Source of the DNA: Flectonema sp. DT1601
Lineage: Eukaryota
NCBI GenBank assembly: GCA_964019425.1
Contig: OZ025800.1
Span: forward strand, 744,001 to 808,000
Reading direction: 5' to 3'
DNA: 64,000 bases
Shown: positions 2,812-57,241 of the stretch, piece after piece
Position numbering within the stretch: position 1 is the stretch's first letter
Layout of the letters: every line of letters starts with the position of its first letter
Program-made: the position numbers and the translations under genes
The notes under the pieces: model-generated
Seen by the model: the letters and a program-made list of their open reading frames with translations, nothing else
What the model was told of the DNA's origin: nothing
Database searches by the model: none

Positions 2812-3738
2812 TCACGATTCAGTCATAGCAGACGGATCTCCTCTCGGTGACGACACTGAATGAGGTAGCGCTGGTGGAGCTTCCTCGGGTCCTCCCAAAC
2901 TTAGTCTTTGAATATCAAACTCCGTTAAAAACCACGGGTCTCTTACAATCTCATCCAGGGTTATTCTCTTGACTGGTTCTCTTTGAAGCGTTCCTCTAAT
3001 TAGATTTGCCTGTTCTTTTGTAAATGTCGACGGCATTTCATAAGAACCAGCAAGGATCTTAGCCAACAGCTCGCTCACTGTTGAGTCATGAAAAGGAAGG
3101 AATCCAGCAAGCATGACATATAGAATAACTCCACATGACCACACGTCTGCAGTAAACCCATTGTAACCTTCTTCGTCCAGAATCTCTGGTGCAACATAGT
3201 TAGGAGTACCACACACAGTTTGTAATTGCATGCTGTTTGGAACTTGTCCCGAAACAGTTGTTTTTTGAACATTCGACAGGCCAAAGTCTGATATCTTGAG
3301 TCCAGTTTCGCTAATTAAAATGTTTTCCGGTTTCAAATCTCTGTGGGCTACTCCCTTGTGGTGTACATACCTAACTCCACAGATCAGATCGTGGAAGTAT
3401 TTTCTTGCTTGTGTTTCTCCGATGCCTCCTTTCTTAACAATCTTATTAAACAATTCACCACCCTGAACAAGTTCCATTACTAAGTAAACATTGTTAGCAG
3501 TCTGAAGAGCGTCGATTGACTTTACTACATTAGGATGTTCCAGGCTCTGCATAATTGCAATTTCTCTGAAGAGTTGCGTTGTGGACCTGCTGTCCTTTAC
3601 GAGAAGATCTTTCTTTATTATTTTTACAGCTACCGGTGCTCCAGTTTCTTGATTTACTCCCCTACGCACCTCTGCGTAAGTTCCCTTTCCTAGTAGTCCA
3701 TCTGGGAGGATTTTAAAATTTCCTATTGTTTTACCCAT
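2812..3738 (-). CDS. Ser/Thr protein kinase, CAMK group (CIPK/SNF1-like), 308 aa, single exon
   Basis: All catalytic motifs are intact: LGKGTYAEV, VAVK, HRDLKPEN, DFG, CGTPNYVAPE, DVWSCGVILYVMLAGFLPF. No C-terminal NAF/KA1 regulatory domain is visible. Confidence 0.95.
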   Translation of the reverse strand: MGKTIGNFKILPDGLLGKGTYAEVRRGVNQETGAPVAVKIIKKDLLVKDSRSTTQLFREIAIMQSLEHPNVVKSIDALQTANNVYLVMELVQGGELFNKIVKKGGIGETQARKYFHDLICGVRYVHHKGVAHRDLKPENILISETGLKISDFGLSNVQKTTVSGQVPNSMQLQTVCGTPNYVAPEILDEEGYNGFTADVWSCGVILYVMLAGFLPFHDSTVSELLAKILAGSYEMPSTFTKEQANLIRGTLQREPVKRITLDEIVRDPWFLTEFDIQRLSLGGPEEAPPALPHSVSSPRGDPSAMTES

Positions 3739-4258: not shown

Positions 4259-6088
4259 TTAGTTATTTCTCTCAAACTCTTGCAGAATCTTTGCGAAGTC
4301 CGCTGCGAGCTTCTTTCTCACAGCGCTGACACGTGCCGCACTCTTCTCTGGGAGAGGCAGTGCGGGGTTGTTGCATGAAGGCCATCTGTTTGTTATTAAT
4401 ACCAAAAGGACTACAACTACTCTGTGAGAGGAACCTAAACATACCTATCACTTAATCCTGTCTGTGTCATGATTGATATTCTACTTTGCTCATAATTGAG
4501 TAGAGGTGATGGGATTTCCTTAACTTCGACTGCTGGCCCTCCGAGGTTTCCGCCAGATTTCTGTAGTTGAAATAGTTTCTTCTATTTTCTTAAACTAACT
4601 TAATAATACTAAATAGCTAAAGACACATACCAGATGTTGAACTACCTCACCCAATTCCTTTGCAATTCCTTTCATGAACAACGCAGCTGTTTCATACTCA
4701 AGAGGTGGTCTTGTCCTACTCGTCAACATCGCACCAGACTGTTTGACTATGGTATCAACGTATGGCATGCTTGAAAGTGGTCTCCAAGCTGTGAGACCTT
4801 CCTTAAGAACAACATCAGAGTCAGAAATCTGTTTTTTTTTTTTTTTTTTTTTTTTTAGTATGAGATGTTTATGAATAACAATCACAACAACACCAATGCA
4901 ATAAGAGATAATAGAAATACACACCTGAGCAACAATATAAAGGGTCTGTGTCTGAGTTACTATCGATCTGTCTATTTCAATAGAAACCTTCTTAGCACGA
5001 GGCATGGCAGGTTCCATCCAGAATCCAGTCTCCGACTGCACAGAACGGATAGCAGCCTCTTCTGGGGTCTCTCCCTTGTTGAGTTTAGTCTTCGGAAAGG
5101 TCCATCCATTCGGGCAAAGAGTATTGCGAACCATTAGTAGATGTGTCATTTTATCATTCACTAACACTCCTCCAGCAACCGGTTGAGACATTTTGAACTC
5201 ACACAGTTTTCGGTGAAATAAGATTGCGACCTTCTTTTTGTTAACTTCATCCTTTTCATTATCAAGTCCTCCCATTGGAGGGGAGTCATCTGGCCATAAG
5301 TTGCACAGAGTTGGTTCTCTTTTTAATACTTCAACGGTAAAATCTTTAAGAAGTCCGCGTTCAAATTTTGGTAGTTGAGAGTTAGATGACAGCTCATCGA
5401 GGTATTGCCAAAAAGCTTTCTCAATTTGAATCATGGCACCCTCAATAGTGTCACGTGTGTCTGGAGGAGCCTTTCTAATATGAATATCAATAAGTTTTTG
5501 TAAGACTTGATCCAACAAATTTAGTTGTTGCTGCTGTTGCTGTTGCTGCTGTTTCTGCTGCTGTTCAGCATGTCTTCTTTCTGGAGTACCTCCTCCTCCC
5601 ATCGGGGTACCTGTTGAATGTACTTTACCACAGCCCTGACATTGTATGTTCTTTTGATATTTCTGAACTCTCATATTATTACCACAATGTGAGCATGGTA
5701 CAACCCTCCATTGTGAATTCGATGTTGGAGTGCTTGTTGGTGAGTTTCCACGGCGATCAGTTGACTGACGGCGTTGGTTACCTGGAGTGTTTCTACCACC
5801 TGATGTTTATTATTTATAATTAACATCAGAATTAAAAAGTCTACATCAAAATAAACACATACCTGGTTGGTGAGGAAACGACGTCACTGGACCAGAATGA
5901 TCAACTTCTTGTGGTGATCTTGATGATGGACTTGGTCTCATCTTCCCTGGTGTTGTTGTAATCTTTCCTTGAGTTGCAAATTGAGAAAGGAAATCTTGAA
6001 CATGCTGTTGAGTACCTTCTCTTCTCACACCCCCTTGCACAGGGCTATCACGTCTGCGACTATTCGCAAAAAGTTGGTCCATCGACAT
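4259..6088 (-). CDS. DCP2: Dcp2-like mRNA decapping protein (Box A + degenerate Nudix box, N-terminal zinc ribbon), 513 aa, 5 exons
   Basis: Exons 6088-5863, 5799-4925, 4828-4631, 4560-4445, 4385-4259 join in phase (1542 nt) via GT-AG introns. Box A-like QIEKAFWQYLD. Nudix region PVAGGVLVN...GWTFPKTKLNKGETPEEAAIRSVQSETGF. Confidence 0.85.
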
Positions 6089-7608: not shown

Positions 7609-9906
7609 TTAGAGCATGTCAAGAAGCTCTTCCTTCTTTTTTTTGATTGTAGTTGCACCCAACTGCTGAGAAGAACTCAACTGCTGAGAAGATGATGCTG
7701 GTGCTGGTGCCGGAGCTGGTGCTGCTGGAGGAGCTCTCCTTTGAACCTGAGCCTGAGAAGTCTTAAAGCGAGGTCCTCCCGTGCTTGGTCTTGCCGCAGC
7801 GGAAGGTTTCTCTTTCTTAGACTTCACTGCCGGAGACGAACGCGGACGACTTAATTTAGCAACAATTTTCGAGTGTGACTTGCCGTACAATTCACAGAAC
7901 TGCTGTAGCGCTGCTAACCATTTTGGTGCCTCACCAACTGCTGCAGACTTGGCAGGTTCTCCAAAGTAACAAAGCATCTTTACTAATAATTTCTTTACTT
8001 CATCATAACGCTTCGATAAACTTTCCATACGTGGAGACCATATTGACATCTGTCCTGTCATAACTTGTTTCAGTCTTGCGTCACTACTGTCAGAAGTAGC
8101 AGCCTTCTTCATGAGGTTGTAACCAGCGCACAGTGAACGATACTCACCCTCCATGATGTGAATGTCTACTATTGAGGCAGCTTTAATTGGAGACAAGTCT
8201 TCCAAGAATTCTATCAGTTCAGGGTTAGATTTATGAACATATGAAACAGTCCAGTCGAGGAATGTTCCAGACGGGCTGCGGACATTTTGCATTTTCAACA
8301 AGTCAGCCACTCGGATACCTTTCGCTTGTCTCTCATTCAAATGGTTTAATAACGTGAGAACAACGCTAAGAAGTTTCTTAAAGTTGTCGGATGTTGTGGC
8401 GGCGGCGCACCCCCTTTCGTAAGCTGTTATTTTATCATTTACAATGTTGTAGTTTTCACCAAAAGTGATCTGTGCATTCCAAATCTTTAACCGACTTTCA
8501 AAACCTGGACACTTACTAACTGCGAAGAAGAACTGCACTACCTTTGAGCTGTCAAATAATTCCTCAGGTGTTAGCGAGGATACTGCCTTCAGTTCTTCTG
8601 CTGTTGGGCAGTTCTGAAGCAGCCCTTCGATGGTACGCTCGTCAATACGTTCAGCGTTTGAATCCAACTCAACAACAGACTTCACCAGATACTCAGGTGA
8701 TGCTTTCACGTACGACAAGAACAACGCAACCAAGTGCTCTCTCTTCCCGTCAATAGGACTCTTCTTAACTGGTTTCTTGTCGCTTACTGCAACGGTGGTA
8801 GACTTCTTCTTGTCAGGTTTCTTAAAGTCTGCCAACAGCAGGGCAGCATCATCCTCTCCGAAGGTGTGATCAGCCTCAGCGAAGACTGTTCCGTCCTGAT
8901 TTTCAACTTCGCTTATGGCCATCAGCTGTCTTTTTGGTTTCATTCCACCAGGACCCGGTGGTGGTGGAGGACCAGGTGGTGGAGGAGGTGCCTTACCACC
9001 AGGCGGAGGTGGTGGAGCACCTGGAGCACCTGGTGGCTTTGGTGGTGCAGGAGCCCCAGGGACGCCAGGTGGTGGTGGTGGCTTAGGCGCACCAGGTGCT
9101 GGTGGTGGCGGCGGTGCACCAGGTGCTGGTGGAGGAGGAGGTGATCCATGTTGTTGAGTAGTATCAGAGTCTGATTTACGAGCAGCGATCATTGCAGCCA
9201 CTCCAGCAACACCAGTTCCACCCCCATCTACTCCTGAAGGTCGAACATTACCAAAGTCATCCCATGCTCTCTTTGATCTATCTTTTGGTACGATTGTAAA
9301 GAATGCTTCATCGTGATGTGGAATCTCGAATGGAGCATCCTCATGAGTGATAGTTGGGACTGCAGATCTAAATGCTGCGAGGGTTGCCTGGGGACTCATT
9401 ACTTTCTTTTTAGCGGCACTCCACTTTGAACCCTTAGGTGTCTTAGTGTTTTCTTCTTCTGGTTCAGAGTCTATTTCAGATTCATCTGCAGATTCATAAT
9501 CAGTACCGCATGTGGTTTGGAGTAGGAACATAATTGCTTCTTTTCGTCTACCGTCTGTGAAGGCGAGAGCATCTTCTACGTCTGTAATAGGTAAATGGCT
9601 GAAAAGATCTCTTCTAATTTCCTCGGCTTCACCAACCATCTTCATTCTCTCTTTTGCTGCCTCTTCCTTTGAGAGTCTAATCGCTAAGTCGATATCACTT
9701 GGACGGCGATCTGTACTGCTTGGCTTTCTTGTACTGCTGTACATGGCTTTAGCTTCAGACACTTTCCAACCAGCTCTTTCCAAATACTTGGCCGCGTCCT
9801 GACAAGAAATTTCACTATATTTGTCTCTGAATAGTTTGATGGCTTCATTTTGATCTTTTTGCATCTCATTCAGCTTCTCACGTGTGCTGATGACATCTCC
9901 ATCCAT
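7609..9906 (-). CDS. Formin (FH1-FH2) with N-terminal UBA-like/UIM/CUE-like modules, 765 aa
   Basis: Poly-proline FH1, then FH2 hallmarks: IDGKREHLVALFL, CPTAEE, FESRLKIW, FKKLLSVVLTLLNHLN...AKGIRVADLLKM, YFGE. Confidence 0.93.
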   Translation of the reverse strand: MDGDVISTREKLNEMQKDQNEAIKLFRDKYSEISCQDAAKYLERAGWKVSEAKAMYSSTRKPSSTDRRPSDIDLAIRLSKEEAAKERMKMVGEAEEIRRDLFSHLPITDVEDALAFTDGRRKEAIMFLLQTTCGTDYESADESEIDSEPEEENTKTPKGSKWSAAKKKVMSPQATLAAFRSAVPTITHEDAPFEIPHHDEAFFTIVPKDRSKRAWDDFGNVRPSGVDGGGTGVAGVAAMIAARKSDSDTTQQHGSPPPPPAPGAPPPPPAPGAPKPPPPPGVPGAPAPPKPPGAPGAPPPPPGGKAPPPPPGPPPPPGPGGMKPKRQLMAISEVENQDGTVFAEADHTFGEDDAALLLADFKKPDKKKSTTVAVSDKKPVKKSPIDGKREHLVALFLSYVKASPEYLVKSVVELDSNAERIDERTIEGLLQNCPTAEELKAVSSLTPEELFDSSKVVQFFFAVSKCPGFESRLKIWNAQITFGENYNIVNDKITAYERGCAAATTSDNFKKLLSVVLTLLNHLNERQAKGIRVADLLKMQNVRSPSGTFLDWTVSYVHKSNPELIEFLEDLSPIKAASIVDIHIMEGEYRSLCAGYNLMKKAATSDSSDARLKQVMTGQMSIWSPRMESLSKRYDEVKKLLVKMLCYFGEPAKSAAVGEAPKWLAALQQFCELYGKSHSKIVAKLSRPRSSPAVKSKKEKPSAAARPSTGGPRFKTSQAQVQRRAPPAAPAPAPAPASSSQQLSSSQQLGATTIKKKKEELLDML

Positions 9907-36256: not shown

Positions 36257-39200
36257 CTACGGGACCCTTCTTGGAATACGAGAAGAGGGTAAGCCTTGTG
36301 AATAATCGTTCGAGGTTTTCACAGGAGGAGAAGAGTGGATAAAGTTCGGTGATCCAACCGGTGAAGCGTCCTCGTGTCCGATATCAGAAATTTCATTGTG
36401 GTGTATTGGTAGTATTACTCCTTTTGTTTTAAGCATTAATAATTTATGAATTGAATTCCTCTTCAAACGATTATCACAGAGAATTGAAAGATCACTCGTA
36501 TATCCCTGAGAAGCTATTTGAAGAACACATCCGTCGACTTGACGAATCTTTTGAATTTTTTCATAAATGATCTCCTTAATAGGCTCAACAGGAGCAGGGC
36601 CAAGAGAGGTTTGAGCATGCTGTGATGAAGCAGTACGTCCACCAGCAGGACTAGGCGCACGCCTATGAGTTGACTGATGATGAATTGATGCCCCAATCGA
36701 TTGCTGCTTCATAGCATCAGCATTAAACACTAATAAACATGTTGATGTAAATCTTAAGCAAATCGGAGTTCGACTTTGTCTTGATAATTGAATACCCTTA
36801 CTTCTAAACATGGCATCATCAAGCCTGAGTCCTCCATTGAATTCATAACCGTCTATGGAGTTCAATTCCTTTGAGTCCAGCATGTCTTCTTTTGACTTCT
36901 TTATCTTACTGAGCTTTTCATTTAACCTTGCTTCCTCTTGTTTTAATTGTTGTACTCTTGTAGTCGCCTCATTCTCTTCTGACTGGAGCTCCTTTATAGC
37001 TCTGTGTTTATCCCATGCTTCCCTTTCTAAGTCAGTGAGTCTTTCGTTGTATGACTCTTGTAAGTGTTTTGCGGCATGTTTCTTATCCTGTTGTTTATTA
37101 TATTATTAAGATCGTGTGAGGATGAAAGGAATATAAAAAGCTGTTTTACATACTCCGATCTGCGCCTTTAAAATATCTAGCTGTCTGTACTTATCGTTGA
37201 CTTCAGACTGAATGACTCGATGTTGTTGTTGTACTTCTTCGGAGTTCAACTTTTCAAGCATCTCCCTCCTGATGTTATTGCAGTAATTTATTTTTGTCTT
37301 ATTTTGAATTTAAAACTGAACAGCTGCTGTAAGTCAGCAGCATTGTTGTCTTAACTTTTCTAAATTAAAGTAGTCACCATACCTTTCTTGCTCAAGAAGC
37401 GTGTCCATCTTGCGCAGCTGGCGGGTAAGATCTTGACGTTGAGTTTCACCCTGTTATTGTTTATGTTAAGTAAGTAGAGTAAAGAAATATTAATAAGATT
37501 GATTGTTCAGTTTAGTTAATTTAGTTCATGTTCACTTCACAAGATAAAATAATACCTCAGAAAGACTTTTTGTGACGTCTGCGAGCTTGCGCGTCATTTC
37601 AGCGCGATCTTCATTCTTCGCTGTGGATTCAGAGAGTTGTTCGCGGATGGTTGCATTTGATGTTTGCAGAAGTCGTAGTCGATCTTGCGTTTGCTGCAAT
37701 TGCCTGAGAGTATCCGTCCGCTCCTGTTCTGCAGAGTGCTGCATATCACGTTTAGTAAATTCGTGTTCTGCCCTTTCTGTTAGTAACTCTCTTTTGAGGC
37801 GCTCGGCTTCACTGGTTCTGACGAGCATGAGTTCATTCTTCAAGTCTTCGTTGGCGTCGGATGACATCTTCCATTCTCCGTTGATTTGTCTTTCAAAAGT
37901 AAGTTGTTTACCCTGTTCAAGTTTACCTTGTAGCTCAGTTTGTTTCTTTCGCATGCGGGTTAACTCGTTTTCTAGTAGTTTGATGCGTTCGTCTTGTCGC
38001 TTTGTATCTTCACGCTGAAGCTGAATAGTTTGTTGTTGTTGGTGGAGTGCTGAAGTAGCTGAAGCTTCTTGTAAAGCGATGTCGTCCCTGGTTTGATTCA
38101 TTGTGGCTTGAACAAGTTCTGATGCTCTTCTTTGAATAGCTCTCGATACATCAGATCCAGCAACACCTGAAGTAGGAACACCATTACTACTCTTTGGATC
38201 TTGAATCCATGAAAATGGATTTCCTTCTACTTCGATGGAAAGTTTTCTTCCAGTAGAAGCTAGCGGATTATTTAATACAAATGAAGGATGCTCTCCGAAC
38301 TGGAGCTCGCACCTCGACGGTAGTTGCACTGATCCCGATGACGGGTTCATTAGATTTCCATTTAATTTAACATCACCAAGTGGTAATAAACTTATTCTCT
38401 CACCCGCTACCTGAAATACAGCATACGGCTGAGTTGCACCATCGTCTTGTTGAGGGGAAAGGCCAGTGAGTTTCACAGAGTGGATTGAAGAGTTTTCAAA
38501 AGGAAGTGTTGAGGGGTCAGGCCAAGGGACTGCAACTTTACCAGCAGAAGCGTCATCCCAACATGAAAGTAAGTGTTGGTACTCAAAACCTTGTCCTACC
38601 TCTCTTGGGGTATTAGACTGTGACTGTGGATGACTACCTGTAGTCCTGTCAGTGCTACTTCTTCTCATCTTACCAAAAGTTGATAAAGATACTCCAAGAA
38701 CTGAACTAGATCGTAACTTTGCTGGGTGTTGTACAGCCAATGTGTTTGAGGCATTTGCTGCTGCAGGTTCTTCGTCGTCTTCGCCTTCACTCTGCTCATG
38801 CTCAATTTGAATGTAGCCGCCCTCTCTGATATTTAAAATGTCTTCTTCTGCTGTGAGTTCTGCAGCCTCCGCGTTATTAATTCTTGTATTCGCTGCATCC
38901 AGTGCACGAGAGACGCTGTCGACTAACCTTCGAGGAGTTTTGTGTCTCGCAGAATCCTTTCTTCCTCCGAGACTTGCTGATGTTGATCGACGGCGATTTG
39001 TCTTCTTGCCGGTTGTGATTTCTGCAGATCGAACTCTCTGAACCTTTCGCTGCTCTTTTTCATGGTCTTCTTCTTTGAGAAGCGTGTGAGCCAAGTCTCT
39101 TCCCCACTCGTTGGGTTTTGATCCCCGCAGATGCTCAGCTACTTCAATATCTTTGAATCCAAAAGCAAGTGTTGGCTGCATGAATGATGGAGTTCTCTTG

Positions 39201-40714
39201 ACACCAAAACCTGATGCACGTCTCTCTAGAGAGTTGTCTTGTGTAGAACTTCTTTTACGCTGTTTACCACTCGTGCTATTCGATGGAGACTTTGGTGGCG
39301 AGTAGTTGGCATCATCAGCTGCGAGTGCAGCGTACGATGAGATTGAAGTAACAAAAGTAAATCCGTCCTTCAAAAACCAAATGAAAGGTTGATTATATGC
39401 TGTCTCTGTCTGTAAGAATGCAACACTTGCCCATAATGCTGATGGAGTACCTCTGTGACAAATAGCTGCTTCACCCTGTCCTGCTGCCGCTGTAATACTT
39501 CCATATAAGGATGATCCCTGCTGGAGTTGCTTATTAAGTTCTCGTATCTGAGAGCGAAGGTCTCTTATAATTCTTCTGTTTGACGCCCGTTTGTTAACTG
39601 AAGGAACGTTCTTAATCAATTTCACCCTTTCGGCGTAGCGAAGGGTAGTAAGAGTTTCTTCGTAATTTATCAAACACGGACTTAGTGTGGCCAACATGAC
39701 TGTTCTTGAATTTCCACCTAAATTATCCTTCAGCAACCAAGTAAGCGTACTGTCTCTATAAGGGACGTAGTTTCCATCAGTCTGAACTGACGGGTCATTG
39801 ATGTCGGCAAGGCGCTTAATTACCATACCCAGAGAAGTTAAACTTTTATTGATATTAATTCCTTCCTTTAGTGTGTCTCCCTCAGTACCAGCTTTGTTGG
39901 TACGTTCACTTCCTGCTAAGTCGACGAGGTTCACGCGACTGATCCATTCGGTTGAGTCACCGGTCTTCTTATCAAACTCACTTTTTGTTATAGTTAAACA
40001 AAATACTGCATGGGATCTTGATGAACGGTCGTTCATCTTAGTACGAGAAGTATGTCTCGTTTTGTTACCTAATCTCATGAGTTCCGCAACTTGTAGATAA
40101 TGTGATACCTCAATGGCGCTTAAGTTTTCAACGTATGGTCCTGCCTTTGGATCCTCACGTGGCCTTAAGGAGTCATTAGTCGCAGGGTCTAACAGACAGT
40201 AGACTTTCTCATTATAAATTTCGTAGTAACTCATCTCTACTCTGAATGAGATCCGTTCTGCTTTTGAAACTTCCGAATTAATTTGATCAAACAACGCCTT
40301 ACACATTCTCGGTGTCAGCCCAGTACTTGCAATAAACCTCGCGTGGTCGCTGTGTGGTGAAGGGGGTCCCATCATCGTGTAAGTCTTCCCAGAAGATGTT
40401 TGTCCATAGGCGAATATGCAAGCATTGTATCCAGATAAGGCGTGTTTTAATTGTGCAGCAGCAACATCTTCATAGATTTTATTTTGAGAAGCGAAGTTCT
40501 TCTCATTGCTGTCACCAATCGACCAGTAGTTGTAATCAAAGTGAAACTTCTTCTTCGCTCCTGTCGCCGGATCGATTAGCGTCGTTGACCGTTCAGAGTA
40601 ATTCATCGCCAGAGTCAGTTGTCCGAGAGAACCACCACGATCTTCCTCCTGCGGGGTTAGTGGTCTCGCACGTACAGCCACAACGACATTTGTCGCGCCG
40701 AATGAGCTTGCCAT
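36257..40714 (-). CDS. Kinesin-3 (KIF1/Unc-104-like) motor with split FHA, coiled coil and C-terminal PH-like domain, 1390 aa, 4 exons
   Basis: P-loop FAYGQTSSGKT, switch I SSRSH, switch II LVDLAGSER, kinesin-3-type VPYRDSTLTWLLKDNLGGNSRT. Exons 40714-37556, 37450-37383, 37268-37154, 37087-36257 join in phase (4173 nt). Confidence 0.95.
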
Positions 40715-40992
40715 GTTGATGAGATGACACCCCCCGACGTGTATTACTGAGAAGAAATGATGTAAAATAAAAAATAAACTTCTCAACTAGAATGTGACCT
40801 GACGACATCATTATATTTTCACAATAGATCGCTGTTTACGAGGGAAGAAACAAAAAGCATTCGATACTTCAGAAGAGTTCGTTAAAAAGACTCATGCACA
40901 GCACGTGTAACAATTGCTTCGCTTCGTTTTGGTAAATATACGTCGATGAATATCAAAGTGTAAAGTAAGGGTAATAAATACATATTTTTTTT

Positions 40993-47955: not shown

Positions 47956-49878
47956 CTAGTCAGAATCAACATCCATGTCAGTTGGACCAGAGTTGTTGCT
48001 GGTCTCGTCTTCATCCGATTCTTCATCTTCTTCAACTTCTTCATCTGAATCTTCGAAGTCTTTGGATTTCTGTTTTTAATTTTTGTAATAACAAACAATA
48101 ACCTGATTCCTTTAAGAAGTACAATCACACACCCAATACTCATAAAACCCGTATGTCCATCTGTTATTACTTTCACAATCAACATTCTCATCATCGCTCA
48201 GGAGATCGATGTCTGCCATTTTGTCTTTCCAGTCCTCTCTTATCCACGATACTCTAAACTTTCCAGGTTTAATGACACTGTGGTTAGTGTTGATTGTTGA
48301 TAATTATTATTAGTAAGAATTTATTGTGTTTCTACATACTCTTTAACAACTGCCCATGCCCAAACATTTTCCACCCAGAGACTTAATTCGGTTCCTTCAC
48401 GGACACCACTTGCTCCGATTACTTCGCGTGTTGGACCGTCGAACTGTTTGTGTTTTTATTCTTTATAAGAAAGTTATGAGAGTCGGAAAACGGTTGTAAA
48501 CAATACATACAGAAGCCTCACTACAGTCATCACACATTTCATTGTTTTCATAAGAATGAGTAAATTGTTTTCGTGCTGTTTCAAAACTGATTGTTGTTCC
48601 TTTTGAAAGGCGATCTTTCATTTCGTTATACCTCCCAAAGAATGGAACTGTTATATTATATTCCTTATCATCGGATTTGTTTTGGTCCACGACGACAATT
48701 TCGTATGTTGAAGAGCACGTCATTGAGACGATGTGTTTGTCTTCAAGGCAATATACCATTTGGGGTATGTGTCGTCTTTCGCGCATATCGTAGTCCTTAC
48801 CTAACAAGGACTTACATTTAACACCCCAGTTCCAAACGGAACCGTCTTCTAATAGCATTGAGTGAAATTGTTTTCCTCCACAAACTTTTTTAATCTTTCC
48901 AACTGGAACTAATATGTCAGTAGGTGTCAAAGAGGTATCTGTTGATGATGCAGCAACACGACCCCAACCTCTTAGTACAGATCTCCCTTTGATGTCGGAT
49001 ATAACAAATGAGGCTTCTGGACCGCTGCCAAGTCGGAAGTTTGTTTCTTCAGATTCTTCGTTTATTTTTATTTCTGTTGGAGACTGCATAGTTCTGATAG
49101 TACCAGTTCCTAAACGGCCATACTCACCAAATCCTGAGGTGTAGATTTGTTTTCCAGATCTGACTATCACATGTTGCGGTCCAGCAGCTATTTCTTCTAC
49201 TTCAACTTCTAAATCGGTTTCAAAAGTTGGGATCTTAGTTGGTTTTGGGATCACACCATCTGGTGGAGGTGCTGCACAACATTGACCATCACCACCATAA
49301 CCCCAAACATAAAAATCACCTTCCTTATCTGTTGCATAAGATGTATTTCCGCTAGCAGTGATACTCGTTGCTTGACTCATCTTTACCGGTTGCGGTTCTA
49401 TTCTTAGCGGTCTGTTTAAAGCCATACCACATTGACCTTTACTATTACTTCCCCATGAAAATACTAATCCCAGATCTGTTCTTGCTAAGCAATGGTGAGC
49501 ACCGCATGCTATTTCTACAACACGTTTCTTGTCGAGTGCCTTGATTGGAATCCACTCGTAGGATTGTTCTAACTTTTTAGGTTCAACACCCAATTGACCA
49601 AAGGCATTACAACCCCATCCATACACTTTAGAGTTAGATCCTAAAATGAGGGTGTGGCGGTGTCCACTTACGATCTGTTTTGGTGTCGTTTTAAAATCGG
49701 AAAATCCCGGCAGGTGGACAGGAAAGTCCAACACCTGATCGGTTCGTGTTTCATTTCCCGGGTTAGAAATATTAACGTCCCCCCAAATATAAGTTTCATA
49801 TTCTGCTTCTTCAGAGTCGCTAACACTCGATGAGTCGCTGTCACTATCGCTATCTTCGGCCTTCCGTTTCCCAGGCAT
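47956..49878 (-). CDS. RCC1-repeat beta-propeller protein with C-terminal Trp-rich beta domain and acidic tail, 576 aa, 4 exons
   Basis: RCC1 repeats (VYGWGCNAFGQLG, IACGAHHCLA...VFSWGSNSKGQCG, GFGEYGRLG). N-terminal basic MPGKRK. Exons 49878-48511, 48443-48340, 48277-48133, 48069-47956 join in phase (1731 nt). Confidence 0.92.
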
Positions 49879-50041
49879 TGTTAATAAGTTATAACTGCTG
49901 AAGGGAACTTAATGTTATTATTTTTTTTTTTTCCCCCGCAAATCAGAATATTATAAAAAGTATCGATAACGAAGTCGCGTGTCGGATTGCATGATTGAGT
50001 TAATCACAACAACTAAACCCATTACAGAACTAAAAAAAAAA

Positions 50042-52420: not shown

Positions 52421-55400
52421 CTATTCCTTATCAGAACTAGACTTTACAAGTGGAGCAAGCTCTCTTGCTCGTTGATTAGCTGGTGAAAGAGATCCCTCTG
52501 AGGGTTGGGAACTCTGTCGTAATGGAGGGAGAGGAGATCTTAATGGAAGAGGTACTTGTTGATCATCACCGTCATCGTCATGAGGTGGTTCAACTGTAAG
52601 AAGAGTCAGTGTATTCGTCTTTACTGCTGAGACAGCTAAGTTAGATTCCACAACAGTATTTGACAGTCCAATCGTTTCATCGAAATCCTCTTCGTCCGAC
52701 GTAGTATCAATAGACTTCGCTGTTTGTGGATCTAAACCACCTAGCGACCTACTCATCTCTAATTCTTCTCTCACAGTCACATCAAGAGGGTTCTTAACAC
52801 TTGGAGGCAATACAGGCATTCTTATACTGTTCGCAGTCAGTGTTGGTCTCCTCAGTGAAGGTTGAGTTGTCTAGTAATTGTTAATTTAAAAAAGATCATT
52901 ACATTCCAAACACACAAATAATAAATACATACAACTCTACGAGACTCCATCCTCCTACCAATGTATCTTGAGTATCTGTCATCAGCAATTTCTAAGACGG
53001 CCTGTTTTTATATTATTACTCACCTTGACCTTGTCGATGATGTTTAATTGAAAGAAAAGGTACGTTTAAAAAAAGAAAACAAAAAAAGGGAAACATATTC
53101 CGTCTTATCGACCAGAAGACGTTGTCGAGTCTGGTACTCGGAAAACTTGTTTAATTTTTTCCCGTTTGAGAATTCAGAAACGTGCAGCGTCTTTGCGAAG
53201 TATTCTCAAAAGGTTTACGACAACAGCACACCTTCCTAAACCCAGCAGATAACAAGGGATTGCTCTTTACTTTCCAAAGGGGAAAAGCATTATTATTTTC
53301 ATTAAGCGTAACAAGCCCCTACTTTACACCCTTATGGGTACAAGTATGATAACCAAATAAATAAAAACACAAACCTGTAAGCAATGAGGGTAATTATCAA
53401 CCGCCCAACTAAACCCACGCTGGTCTAAAACGTATACCTGACAATAAGTCTTTGCTGTGATGGTATATGGTGATGGAATGCCAAATAGTAAGGGAAGCTC
53501 ACCAAAGAACGCTCCCTCACTTAAGACAGAAGTTGAAGAATGAGACATTACAACACTACCTCTTGTGATCATATAGAAGAATGATGCAGGTTCACCATGA
53601 GTGATGATTACAGAATTAGGTGTGAATGCTTGAAGACGAAGTTTAGAAACAACGTCTGAAATAAAAAGATCATTTGCCTCATTATAAAGCATGGGAACAG
53701 ATTCTAACACATGAGCGTTCAAATGATACGACAGAGTTGATCTGAGATCTGCTGGGAGTGGCCAAGATAAAGCATCAAAGTCAGAACCAGTGTGATTCCC
53801 ATCAAGTAAGAAGTCATACTGACTAACGTGATATGTTCTTGTTGATCCCCACAAGAATCTAACGTATCCGATTACTTCTGCTCGGTACTGTGCTGGAAGT
53901 TTTCGTTCAACAAGAAAGATCTTTAGCTGCTCAACTAGTCGCTCATATTCTTTTTGATTAGGATTTGTAGAATCAAGTAAAACAGCAACATAAGCAATGA
54001 CGGTTGCCCAGACGGCAACACCTGCAAGTTGAGCTACCATGACCACTAGTGTCTGGGGATCACTCTGCGGCCAACGACAACCGTATCCCGACATTGCTCG
54101 TATTGCCCAATCAAAACAAGTTGTATATCTGTATAACAAATCCTTATCCTCAAAGGTGTTACTATCTAATTGAAAATATCTCAAATACTGATCACCATTA
54201 CCCTCCTCATCAATGTTTGATGTCCATAATATCCAATGTAATGCAGCAGCTGACATGTGAAGAATAAAGAACACTCCTAGTAATAGCTTTACGGCTTGGA
54301 CTCTAATTGGGGATATTTGTGACATGTGTCTAGCAACAAATGCGGTGAATAACTGATTAAATGATAACATGTTCAGTAGTCGATTGGCGCGAAAGGGAGG
54401 ATCCCAAATCATGTTAGCATCCCAAGCAAATAGAGCAGCAAGAAATTCTATCGGAAAACACGCTAGCACTGACACAGCAAATGCAACCGTTTTGTAGTAG
54501 TGTGGAGTACTTCGAAGGGTTGTTGCAATTGATATCCAGTAGACTGAAACATCTGCAACCCATTGGAGCACTGCCATAAATATCGAATATGGCAAATCAA
54601 ACCCAATATGTAAAGGAATATTAACACAATTAAATACTAACACTGCTATCTTTAGGGTATTCCATATATCTTTGTGAAGCAATCGAGAAGCTGCTCGTTT
54701 ATCATCTTTCTCTTGTTGTTCACTTCTTGTTACTAATGTTAACCTCCGTAGACGAACTTCCTTTCTCTTATCGAGGTTGGTTGACGCGCTGTTAAATTCA
54801 CCAATTGTTTGAAGCATTCCAGCGGTGTTGTCGTCATCCACTAATTCAACTAACTGAGCAAGTCTTCCATCTTTCCATTCTTCCATACTGGAGACGGGAA
54901 GTTTTTGTAGTGCGACAGCGAATATAGACTGCCTGAATTGATATAAATGTTCTGTACTGCTCTTAAAGTCGCTCCTCGGATGTGGTCCAATTCCCTGGAA
55001 TAATCCTCGACTGCGAAGCATTTCACCTGCTGAGACTGCCATCGTTTCAGTGATGTCAAAGCAGTCGACTAACCAAGCAACAACATCAGCCCCCACAAAT
55101 ATATTATCAACTTTGCTCATACAACCTGTTCGTTTCGAATGTAAGAAATGTTTTGATACGTGATTGCTGAAAACAGCAGCGAATCTTTCCAGTCCGGTTT
55201 CAGCTTTTTCTGCTGCTTTTTCAGCAGCTTTCCAGGCGTCTTCATCTACAATCTGTTGAGCAGGGCTAAATAAATTAGATGAAGATGATACCATTGTCAT
55301 TACAGGATCAGCTGCACTAAACACGTCGCGTGATTTCCTTCTTGCTGATGGGATGGCTGCCCTAATCAATTCAGCTAAGTTGCTATTTTCAGACTTTAAA

Positions 55401-57241
55401 GTTGCAGCAATAGATGGCCTGGGACCATGTCTAAAGGTAGGCATCGCGTCTGCGGGCTGAATGCAAGTGTCCGATTGATTGAGAGCGTCTTTAGTTCTTC
55501 CTGATAAGACGTTGTTTAAATGCTCCAAAAGCCATTTCATTGGCACTCCAGCTGGGGGACTCTCGCTCATGGACTCAGCGATTGCAACGGCGCCCTCATG
55601 CTCGCGAGCATTGACTGCGGAATTGATATCGAGTAATGGTTCTATTCTGGCATCCGCAGTTAAAACATAAACAGTTTTATGTGGACGTGGATTTGGAACA
55701 CCCTGAGGTTTTAATCCACCCTTCTCAGGCACAACTACATCAACAAGAGGAATAGCCCGAAGCCCACTTGGAGAACCATTCGGAATAGGAGATAAACAAG
55801 GTTCCCTATTTTGATTTGCCTGACCGGGTACTTCTAATGGATTGAATGATAAGACCTCAGCTCCTATTTGTCTTCCAAAAAGAGCCAAGTTTCTTGCAAT
55901 GTCACGCTGTGTTGATATAATACCGTGTACTAACGCACTCCTTCCTCTGACTCTACTCATTCCAGTAAGACAATCACCTGTTGATATACCAACACTCCAT
56001 GAGGGTTTTCTTTCAGTAATACTGCTGCTGTTGTGAGGTGCTTTGAACATTTGAACTAAACTTGAACAGAATGAAAGAATTCTTATATTCAATTCCTTGC
56101 CGCCAACCCACCAGACGTTGCAGCTGTTCGATCCAGCCCACTCTAGTCGGGCTCCGTATGCGTGACACATGTCCGCTATGCTCTCAAATGTCGTTGAGTT
56201 TTCAAAAGAAATATCTAACCTTTCTTTATAATCAACAACCACAGTTAAGAATGTACAGGTGTGACGCTTCCATGGTTCGAAGGTGACATTTCGTGAAAGG
56301 TTTGGAGTACCATGAGGATCGGTACTACTTCTCTCTGATGCTTTATGTGAAAGTGTTCGAAGAGGAAGCGGAGTAGTATCAGATCGATCCCTTGAGAAGG
56401 TTCTAGATGAAGGAGATGGTATTGTAAAGTTAACTCTTGCTCTTGCAGTCGCCCCCTCACTTAAGTGAGAACCAGTAGAGACACAAAGTGGGTCGACTTC
56501 TGGTGCACTCAAATGAAGTGGTGGCATTCCTGGTGATAATACAGCAGGGAGTGGTCCAGCTTCAGTACCTGATGGCTCTGCGAATATAAAAGCTCTTCCT
56601 GATCTTCTTCCAACAGCTGGCGCTGAACACATCTCTCCATCTTCATCTTCTCCTATAGGGGTAACAAATTCAGTGTTGAGTCGATCACATTCACCGAAAT
56701 CATTTATAGCTAGTTGGAGGTGTTCAATAATTCGAGTTCTGGCACATTGAGCACCAAAACCAACGCACTTAATTTCATGTGGTATAAGTGGATTATATAT
56801 CTCCATACAGGTGTCAGGGAGTTCAGGTATGAACCCCCAAGCTGCTTCACGACCAATTGATACCAAATGATGAGATAAATCACGTAGAGGAATAGAAAGG
56901 GTTTTATCAATAAATAATTTCAACAAAAAGCACAACGACAACGACAGAACTAAAGCCACAGCAACAGCTGGCCCAACCATACTAACATCTGGTGAGGAAG
57001 AACACGAAGACGATAGTTGTGAGCAAAGAAGATCAGCCTCATTAAGTCCTAATAAGGTACTACTCATGACTTTCTCAACACACGAAAATTGATTATAATT
57101 TATACTTCCTCGTGAGATCTGCTCAATCCCGAGAGCTGCTCCGATTGTCACTAACGAGATTCCAACCTGCGCAGCGAATATAATTCGCGAGGACTGATAT
57201 CCACGAATGTCCTCCATCTGAACATCCTCCTCTGAGAACAT
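52421..57241 (-). CDS. Fusion protein: 2TM + HAMP-like + degenerate class III nucleotide cyclase + DEP + 6TM cation channel + cyclic-nucleotide-binding domain, 1461 aa, 3 exons
   Basis: Exons 57241-53375, 53001-52933, 52870-52421 are all phase 0. DEP FVGADVVAWL...AVSAGEMLRSRGLF...LYQF. S4-like FRANRLL. Pore FDWAIRAMSGYG. C-linker LPAQYRAEVIGY...LPADLR. CNBD IITHGE...GAFFGELPLL. Confidence 0.9.

Follow-up and report, generated by a model that had tools for sequence, protein, structure and literature searches.

A putative non-catalytic DCP2 orthologue with a broken Nudix box in the diplonemid Flectonema sp. DT1601 and its relatives

To our knowledge, DCP2 has been treated as the universal decapping enzyme of eukaryotes, with the kinetoplastids and their ApaH-like phosphatase ALPH1 as the single exception. 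The subject of this report is a DCP2-like gene on the minus strand of a 64,000-nucleotide stretch of DNA from the diplonemid Flectonema sp. DT1601 (GenBank assembly GCA_964019425.1, contig OZ025800.1, positions 744,001 to 808,000 of the forward strand; the whole stretch is referred to below as the window, and all coordinates are those of the window). Judged by its sequence, the product is by descent a DCP2 homologue that fails the defining catalytic signature of the family, and for that reason we do not class it as a decapping enzyme. All of the diplonemids sampled have DCP2-like proteins without the full set of catalytic residues, a loss seen in none of the other DCP2 proteins with which they were compared. 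What is new here is a natural, lineage-wide and catalytically degenerate DCP2, the loss of activity being predicted; if the prediction is true, these proteins would constitute a natural pseudo-DCP2 family, and we know of no earlier example of such a family.

The closest described systems are the canonical Dcp2 proteins of S. pombe, K. lactis, S. cerevisiae and human (DCP2/NUDT20), which have the same two-domain architecture and fold as the window protein, for which a helix at the Box B position is likewise predicted. The cap-stacking Trp, the Asp and the general-acid Lys are shared and so, in the window protein, is the general-base Glu. Canonical Dcp2 differs in that the Gly and two Glu of its Nudix box are intact and its 190s loop is longer and contains Glu192, whereas the window protein has an extra disordered N-terminus with Ser/Thr-Pro motifs, a zinc ribbon and a structured, clade-specific insert of ~20 residues between the domains; in the diplonemid proteins a clade-specific C-terminal helix replaces the long disordered tail of canonical Dcp2. 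In the passages available from PMC5861098, Glu148 of K. lactis Dcp2 is described as coordinating Mg2+ and Glu152 as the general base, with three Mg2+ on conserved glutamates in the product complexes, and a passage of PMC8984151 states that mutation of S. cerevisiae E153 or S. pombe E147 fully abolishes decapping and that four other glutamates bind metals. The laboratory mutants that correspond to such a loss (S. cerevisiae E153Q and K. lactis E152Q; PDB 4kg3, 6am0) fold normally and bind cap analogue, as far as PDB entry titles and the same part of PMC5861098 go, and the Gln engineered into them is the natural residue in five diplonemid proteins (those of Diplonema japonicum, D. ambulator, Hemistasia, Namystynia and Artemidia). 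Compared with these dead mutants, the window protein retains the general base and is short of two glutamates that serve as metal ligands, and the natural variants combine several substitutions at once.

A second point of comparison is the kinetoplastids, which lack DCP2 and decap with ALPH1, as had been stated in the initial annotation of this DNA and as passages in three papers bear out (PMC5491325, PMC8220851, PMC10415143). In this sister euglenozoan lineage canonical DCP2 catalysis has likewise apparently been given up, according to parts of PMC5491325 and PMC13069679, but ALPH1 is unrelated to Nudix proteins, and the kinetoplastids (Metakinetoplastina) lost the DCP2 gene, whereas the diplonemids kept it. 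A 2023 paper reports, in the passage concerned, Dcp2 orthologues in all lineages but Euglenozoa and the absence of Dcp1, Pat1 and Edc1-4 from Discoba (PMC10415143), and a single sentence in a 2026 paper records BLAST-detectable DCP2-like proteins in Prokinetoplastina, euglenids and diplonemids, together with an absence of ALPH1 homologues there (PMC13069679). The state of the Nudix box is not mentioned in those passages of PMC10415143 and PMC13069679, and searches of the openly available full-text literature yielded no report of a broken Nudix motif in diplonemid DCP2. There are no Diplonema, DCP2, Perkinsela or Euglena entries in the supplement of PMC13069679, no Diplonema rows in the tables of PMC5862402, nothing on decapping, DCP2, DCP1 or PF05026 among the supplements of PMC10161547, and no mention of decapping, DCP2 or Nudix in the main text of PMC7052976.

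The Nudix motif of the window protein, FPKTKLNKGETPEEAAIRSVQSETGF, spans residues 310-335 and is encoded in exon 2 at 5098..5021 of the minus strand, inside the interval (5020..5115) to which it had originally been assigned. When the box is aligned with that of S. pombe (gwtfpkTklnkgetpeeaairSvqSetgf in the window against gwgfpkGkidkdesdvdcairEvyEetgf in S. pombe; S. pombe residue numbers were counted from chain positions in the alignments), Gly128 is replaced by Thr313, Glu143 by Ser328 and Glu146 by Ser331, and this residue-level comparison agrees with the initial reading of the first Gly as Thr and of two of the three REUxEE glutamates as Ser. Lys129 (Lys314), Glu134 (Glu319), Arg142 (Arg327), Glu147 (Glu332) and the final Gly-Phe are retained. 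The family signature GX5EX7REUXEEXGU is thereby reduced to T..E..RSVQSETGF, with six of the nine positions and one of the three helix glutamates remaining, in a protein that has kept its general-base Glu332 and general-acid Lys314 yet is without two of the Nudix-helix metal ligands. The 190s loop is ~7 residues shorter than the canonical one, and in its alignment-dependent pairing with S. pombe, Lys376 stands in the column of Glu192 (E198 in S. cerevisiae) with Glu377 adjoining it. Upstream, Box A (QIEKAFWQYLD, residues 200-210) is retained as had been noticed at the outset, including its Trp, and its Trp and Asp correspond to W43 and D47 of S. pombe. Sequencing error, which had been named as something that could undo the observation, is rejected as its source: the substituted codons (ACT for Thr, TCT and TCG for Ser) are each at least two base changes away from Gly or Glu codons, and in the transcript-derived protein of Flectonema neradi the three residues in question are Thr, Ser and Ala.

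The gene that carries this box is intact. Three-frame translation and splice signals give a model of five exons on the minus strand (6088..4259), with an unbroken frame, a product of 513 residues and four introns that all have GT..AG ends. Along its whole length and across every exon junction the spliced product matches the transcript-derived protein of F. neradi (P0005), the two being identical at 409 of the 505 positions aligned (81%), and because the match holds at every junction we regard the five-exon model as confirmed. The second intron interrupts the Nudix fold while remaining in frame and free of stops, it has a run of 25 A (T at 4832-4856 on the plus strand) immediately before its CAG acceptor, and its 32 codons are missing from the F. 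neradi transcript protein. Seven members of the diplonemid clade described below derive from transcriptome assemblies. A decaying pseudogene was rejected on the grounds of the open frame, the canonical splice sites and the 81% identity to an expressed orthologue. The protein collection contains the window protein (P0004) in a different form, i.e., as the open reading frame (ORF) 4595..5674 on the minus strand, in which exons 2 and 3 are fused through the 32 intron-encoded residues and the frame continues into intron 3; this 359-residue chimera is a mis-annotation to be remembered for this genome. The introns of the gene have GTATGT or GTGTGT donors and acceptors that are preceded by A-rich rather than pyrimidine-rich sequence (...AAACAG, ...CTACAG).

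The window protein is a two-domain DCP2 homologue in which a Box A regulatory domain is followed by a Nudix domain. It matches the Pfam NUDIX family PF00293 at E=3.4e-10 (40.5 bits, the cutoff being 21.1), and PF05026, the Pfam family for DCP2 Box A, is present as a precomputed annotation for P0003-P0005, which include the window ORF and the F. neradi protein. Among solved structures, a sequence search with the single protein returned Dcp2 as all of its top 14 matches, with that of S. pombe first (E=1.8e-11), and a search with a profile of four diplonemid sequences again returned Dcp2 in all of the top 14 (best E=2.3e-19), matching both the regulatory and the Nudix domains; in the profile alignment the Nudix fold corresponds to residues 80-208 of S. 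pombe Dcp2 and the regulatory domain to residues 8-57 (8-59 over the single-protein and profile alignments together). AlphaFold models were built for the 81%-identical Flectonema orthologue rather than for the window protein itself. The model from a 4-sequence alignment has a mean predicted local distance difference test score (pLDDT) of 55.9, with 70-84 in the core, and the model from a 60-sequence alignment that included canonical Dcp2 sequences has a mean pLDDT of 75, with at least 90 over residues ~150-380. When both models were compared with the PDB by Foldseek, all chains listed to rank 28 were Dcp2. For the complexes in the active state (6am0, 5lop and 5n2v) the template modelling (TM) scores were 0.56-0.70 over both models and 0.56-0.67 with the 60-sequence model, and for the S. 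cerevisiae Dcp2 Nudix domain they were 0.68-0.73 with the latter model, and the alignments to Dcp2 chains extended over ~220-317 columns as compared to ~155-170 for matches to the Nudix domain only. The original description of the gene as a homologue of Dcp2 whose Nudix box is broken is upheld by the Pfam, solved-structure and Foldseek matches together, and a generic Nudix hydrolase was rejected, given that the protein has a Box A domain and aligns over long stretches with Dcp2 chains. Nudix folds without catalysis have been met with elsewhere, as in proteins of the NUDT16L1/TIRR type, and the use of the fold as a binding module after catalytic loss would be the same evolutionary route; these proteins belong to a different Nudix subfamily without Box A, with no evidence of relatedness past the shared fold, and an automatic match to a NUDT16L1 cluster (rank 28, score 0.82) was not counted as evidence.

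The distribution of the broken box was followed through an exhaustive HMMER search with a 4-sequence profile, which found 1912 proteins at E<=1e-3, the best 150 of which are listed. Nine proteins stand at E<=1e-30, after which the scores drop from 143.8 to 98.6 bits; they are the window ORF, the proteins of D. japonicum, D. papillatum, D. ambulator (a fragment), Rhynchopus euleeides, Hemistasia, Namystynia karyoxenos and Artemidia motanka, and an ENA record. A tenth, the Flectonema protein, belongs to the window's own 50% cluster. In their source labels the D. papillatum protein is called "mRNA-decapping enzyme subunit 2" and the Hemistasia protein ("Hpha") is tagged K12613/DCP2. In a tree of 151 sequences, consisting of these ten and of 141 other DCP2-family representatives among the matches listed, the diplonemid sequences are monophyletic (support 1.0) on a stem of 1.09 substitutions per site and divide into three hemistasiids and seven sequences of the Diplonema/Rhynchopus/Flectonema type. 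All three REUxEE glutamates are present in none of the ten and in every one of the 141 (Fisher p=8e-16). The segment reads RSVQSE in the window protein, RSVQAE in Flectonema, RILLQK in Rhynchopus, RALLQK in the ENA record, HHTFDQ in D. japonicum, RNVFDQ in D. ambulator, SAVHEL in D. papillatum, REVLMQ in Hemistasia, REVREQ in Namystynia and REVKVQ in Artemidia. The glutamates that were lost differ by lineage: the first is kept in the hemistasiids, the second in Namystynia and D. papillatum, and the third, the general base, only in the window protein and Flectonema, the other eight members having Gln (five), Lys (two) or Leu (one) in its place. Glu at the column of S. pombe Glu192 follows the same division (0/10 against 140/141 of the other listed representatives). 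By our own count on the tree, an intact ancestral box with independent decay and an ancestral Gln at the general base are equally parsimonious. Of 157 stored proteins, some of them cluster members, 136 fit a strict regular expression that covers the entire box; outside the clade, the misses came down to a change at the last Gly or at a U position or to the insertion of a single residue, and RE.xEE was intact in them. In the diplonemids sampled, the broken box is by these comparisons a fixed, lineage-wide state and not a local oddity.

Environmental sequences served as a control only. A first metagenome scan found no relative, and when the 4-sequence alignment was used in a word-indexed search of proteins, P0005 and the ORF of the window itself were the sole matches. 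The scan with a 3-sequence hemistasiid alignment returned 80 Dcp2-like loci, all at most 32% identical and all ordinary Dcp2 genes from outside the clade, and Gx5Ex7RE..EE is intact in 78 of the 80, one of the remaining two having an insertion with REVLEE kept and the other being interrupted; the scan pattern contained W.FPKGK, and it is only the downstream part of the box that provides an unbiased test. One of these metagenome loci (L023) has extra residues in its Nudix loop (GKCNESELNELHRCAVREVLEE) with the glutamates intact, the loop being lengthened as it is in the hemistasiids.

The residues expected to contact the cap and the RNA have fared differently from the catalytic ones. The cap-stacking Trp is present in nine of the nine clade proteins that cover the region, and the general-acid and RNA-binding Lys (S. 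pombe K129) is present in all ten and in all 141 other listed representatives, and its column does not vary in alignments A2 and A3; the retained Trp and Lys fit with a role in binding or as a scaffold. When four diplonemid proteins of full length are compared, none of the nine Nudix-signature positions is invariant, whereas in the core 82 of the 259 columns free of gaps are (hypergeometric P=0.03), a pattern that would be expected under relaxed selection on catalysis with the rest of the protein constrained. The insert between the domains is reflected in the spacing from the Trp to the box, which is 107 residues in the window protein, 95-117 in the clade and a median of 85 in other DCP2. Further elements conserved specifically within the clade are the N-terminal Ser/Thr-Pro motifs, the predicted helix at the site of Box B, a segment reading GGPAV...PLL.Y and the C-terminal amphipathic helix, which is predicted at residues 480-506 of the Flectonema orthologue model.

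We consider it probable, with some reserve, that the window gene is an intact, spliced diplonemid DCP2 orthologue whose product, by prediction, hydrolyses caps barely or not at all any more and likely functions as a cap- or RNA-binding or scaffold subunit. With two (probably three) of the metal-ligand glutamates gone, the catalytic Mg2+ ions would not be properly held, and cap hydrolysis would then be poor or nil. Selection would meanwhile have maintained the surfaces that bind cap and RNA and the clade-specific motifs at both termini, and because these have been kept by selection, diplonemid DCP2 may recognise capped RNA and recruit partners instead of cleaving. The prediction of lost activity is firmer for the eight clade members without the general base; the window protein, which has kept it, is together with that of Flectonema the least degenerate of the clade. 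The suggestion in the initial annotation of a non-catalytic cap-binding or scaffold Dcp2 stands in so far as the box is broken throughout the clade and the Trp and Lys are kept, and it is tempered by the presence of Glu332 and Lys314 in this particular protein. The accompanying idea of an intermediate on the way to Dcp2 loss fits poorly, because the protein is conserved across both of the diplonemid families sampled, which gives the impression of a state that is stable and under selection and not of ongoing decay.

Several observations weigh against this assignment. The window protein and that of Flectonema are the only clade members with the general-base Glu (E332), and K314, E319 and R327 are also present, with Glu377 one column away from the position of Glu192; because these residues are kept or nearby, residual or metal-altered activity is conceivable in this lineage. 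Cap binding would be inferred from just two or three conserved residues, and the Asp among them is found in seven of the nine clade proteins covering the region, the Rhynchopus pair having Pro or Leu instead. The match of the window exon to PF05026 (E=8.2e-6, 26.4 bits) falls slightly below the 28-bit cutoff, and the 60-sequence model leans to the canonical fold owing to the composition of its alignment.

Two other explanations have to be set beside a binding or scaffold DCP2. Some Nudix enzymes work with non-canonical or altered boxes, and the first explanation supposes a still-working decapping enzyme of this kind, which would cleave in a metal-dependent manner and might act on a modified spliced-leader cap. 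Glu332, Lys314, Glu319 and Arg327 could suffice for it, perhaps with assistance from Glu377 or the nearby Glu322/Glu323, in a fold that is intact together with its cap-stacking Trp and Asp. We regard it as unlikely, since Ser has taken the place of two of the three glutamates in the Nudix helix, the second of these positions is unconserved even between orthologues that are 81% identical (Ala in the Flectonema protein), and no substitute acidic residue is conserved clade-wide. The fact that all 141 other listed DCP2 representatives keep the REUxEE glutamates argues against their dispensability, and the general base is missing in eight of the ten clade members, its mutation being reported in the passage cited above to abolish decapping (PMC8984151). 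The second explanation is ordinary subfunctionalisation, with the window gene as a divergent, non-catalytic duplicate and an intact second DCP2 elsewhere in diplonemid genomes as the enzyme that decaps. The long stem branch (1.09) would fit a fast-evolving copy, and the matches listed are the best 150 of 1912. The negatives that speak against a duplicate are weak ones: no other Dcp2-like locus lies within the 64-kb window; among the best 150 of 1912 no protein falls between the clade (at least 143.8 bits) and the Dcp2 of animals, fungi and amoebozoans (at most 98.6 bits); of 22 matches outside the clade that were looked up, the 17 with an organism name include no euglenozoan; and the published surveys by BLAST or HMMER, in the passages available, report no Dcp2 in Euglenozoa (PMC10415143) or only "DCP2-like proteins" in diplonemids (PMC13069679). 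A duplicate is, in our estimation, an improbable account of the gene.

If a non-catalytic DCP2 is indeed what diplonemids possess, a group of marine protists that ranks among the most abundant eukaryotes of the ocean would be left without a known decapping enzyme, and its mode of mRNA decapping becomes a question that can be tested directly. It would also follow that the exchange of decapping enzymes in the Euglenozoa began with the loss of DCP2 catalysis, with loss of the gene coming later, and the partners of a dead DCP2 would offer a direct route to the missing decapping enzyme. A broader scenario, which we put forward tentatively and consider doubtful, is that diplonemids are without a competent DCP2 and, according to the literature, without ALPH1, that bulk decapping is performed by another enzyme with the dead DCP2 as its cap-recognition or scaffold subunit, and that the catalytic death of DCP2 predates, and helps to explain, its replacement by ALPH1 in kinetoplastids.

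The remaining features of the gene and of the window are collected in Table 1. The short motifs RDSP, RPSP, SPQ, TPG, DRR.N and GTPERR (5863-6088 and 5570-5799, minus strand) are invariant across the Flectonema and Diplonema proteins, those of exon 1 (RDSP, RPSP, SPQ) in four diplonemid proteins, and the fact that most of them are Ser/Thr-Pro sites suggests proline-directed phosphoregulation. A Cys-rich stretch comparable to the zinc ribbon is present in Flectonema, where the first Cys pair is CxC, and in D. japonicum, where the stretch (W-x-C-x2-C...C-x2-C) is one that we take to be RanBP2-like; it is absent from D. papillatum. The ribbon may serve as an additional module for binding RNA or protein. 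Gln-rich stretches of differing sequence occur in the matching N-terminal region of the Flectonema, Rhynchopus and ENA-record proteins. The Box B-like helix is predicted at residues 405-429 of the orthologue with a pLDDT of ~90; its similarity to the canonical Box B sequence is weak, and the profile hidden Markov model alignments end upstream of it.

Table 1. Coordinates of the DCP2-like gene, its parts and neighbouring genes in the window
Feature	Position	Strand	Basis or remarks
Whole DCP2-like gene	4259..6088	-	start ATG at 6088; stop codon ends at 4259
Exon 1	5863..6088	-	disordered N-terminal region with Ser/Thr-Pro motifs (RDSP, RPSP, SPQ); pLDDT <50 in both models
Exon 2	4925..5799	-	zinc ribbon, poly-Q, Box A regulatory domain, clade-specific insert and first half of Nudix fold including Nudix box; translation P0001
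Exon 3	4631..4828	-	splice model
Exon 4	4445..4560	-	conserved GGPAV...P.PLL.Y segment
Exon 5	4259..4385	-	conserved C-terminal amphipathic helix SAVRKKLAADFAKILQEF at 4274..4327, then stop codon
Intron 1	5800..5862	-	63 nt
Intron 2	4829..4924	-	96 nt; in frame, stop-free, interrupts Nudix fold
Intron 3	4561..4630	-	70 nt
Intron 4	4386..4444	-	59 nt
Four-Cys zinc ribbon, residues 111-136, CxxC-x15-CxxC	5618..5695	-	sequence; weak Pfam matches to DUF5817 (E=2.2e-4) and Ribosomal_S27e
Poly-Gln tract QQQKQQQQQQQQQ	5527..5566	-	CAG/CAA-encoded, shortly before regulatory domain
N-terminal regulatory domain, residues 168-246	5288..5524	-	Pfam PF05026, S. pombe alignments, helices with pLDDT >90
Box A QIEKAFWQYLD, residues 200-210	5396..5428	-	Trp206 and Asp210 = S. 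pombe W43 and D47
Nudix fold, residues ~281-390	4760..5185	-	Pfam NUDIX, S. pombe profile match, TM score
23-residue Nudix box TKLNKGETPEEAAIRSVQSETGF, residues 313-335	5021..5089	-	S. pombe alignment
Counterpart of the 190s metal-binding loop, shortened, start of exon 3	4775..4828	-	alignment to Dcp2
Box B-like helix PLEYETAALFMKGIAKELGEVVQHL, residues 409-433	4631..4705	-	position in alignment with canonical Dcp2
Ser/Thr protein kinase	2812-3738	-	
Formin, FH2 domain and long poly-Pro FH1 region	7609-9906	-	
Kinesin	37532-40786	-	
RCC1-repeat protein	48463-49908	-	
Large DEP and cyclic-nucleotide-binding protein	53324-57241	-	

The surroundings of the gene are AT-rich (38% GC over the window) and eukaryotic in character. 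None of the neighbouring genes listed in Table 1 is related to mRNA decay, the 64-kb window contains no Dcp1, ALPH or second Nudix gene, and Rfam and tRNA scans of the window gave no matches. The window has 23 stop-to-stop ORFs that are 150 residues or longer, and 22 of them are on the minus strand; the one exception (37548-38018, plus strand) overlaps the minus-strand kinesin ORF. The window looks like one long unidirectional gene array, and polycistronic gene arrays are known from Euglenozoa.

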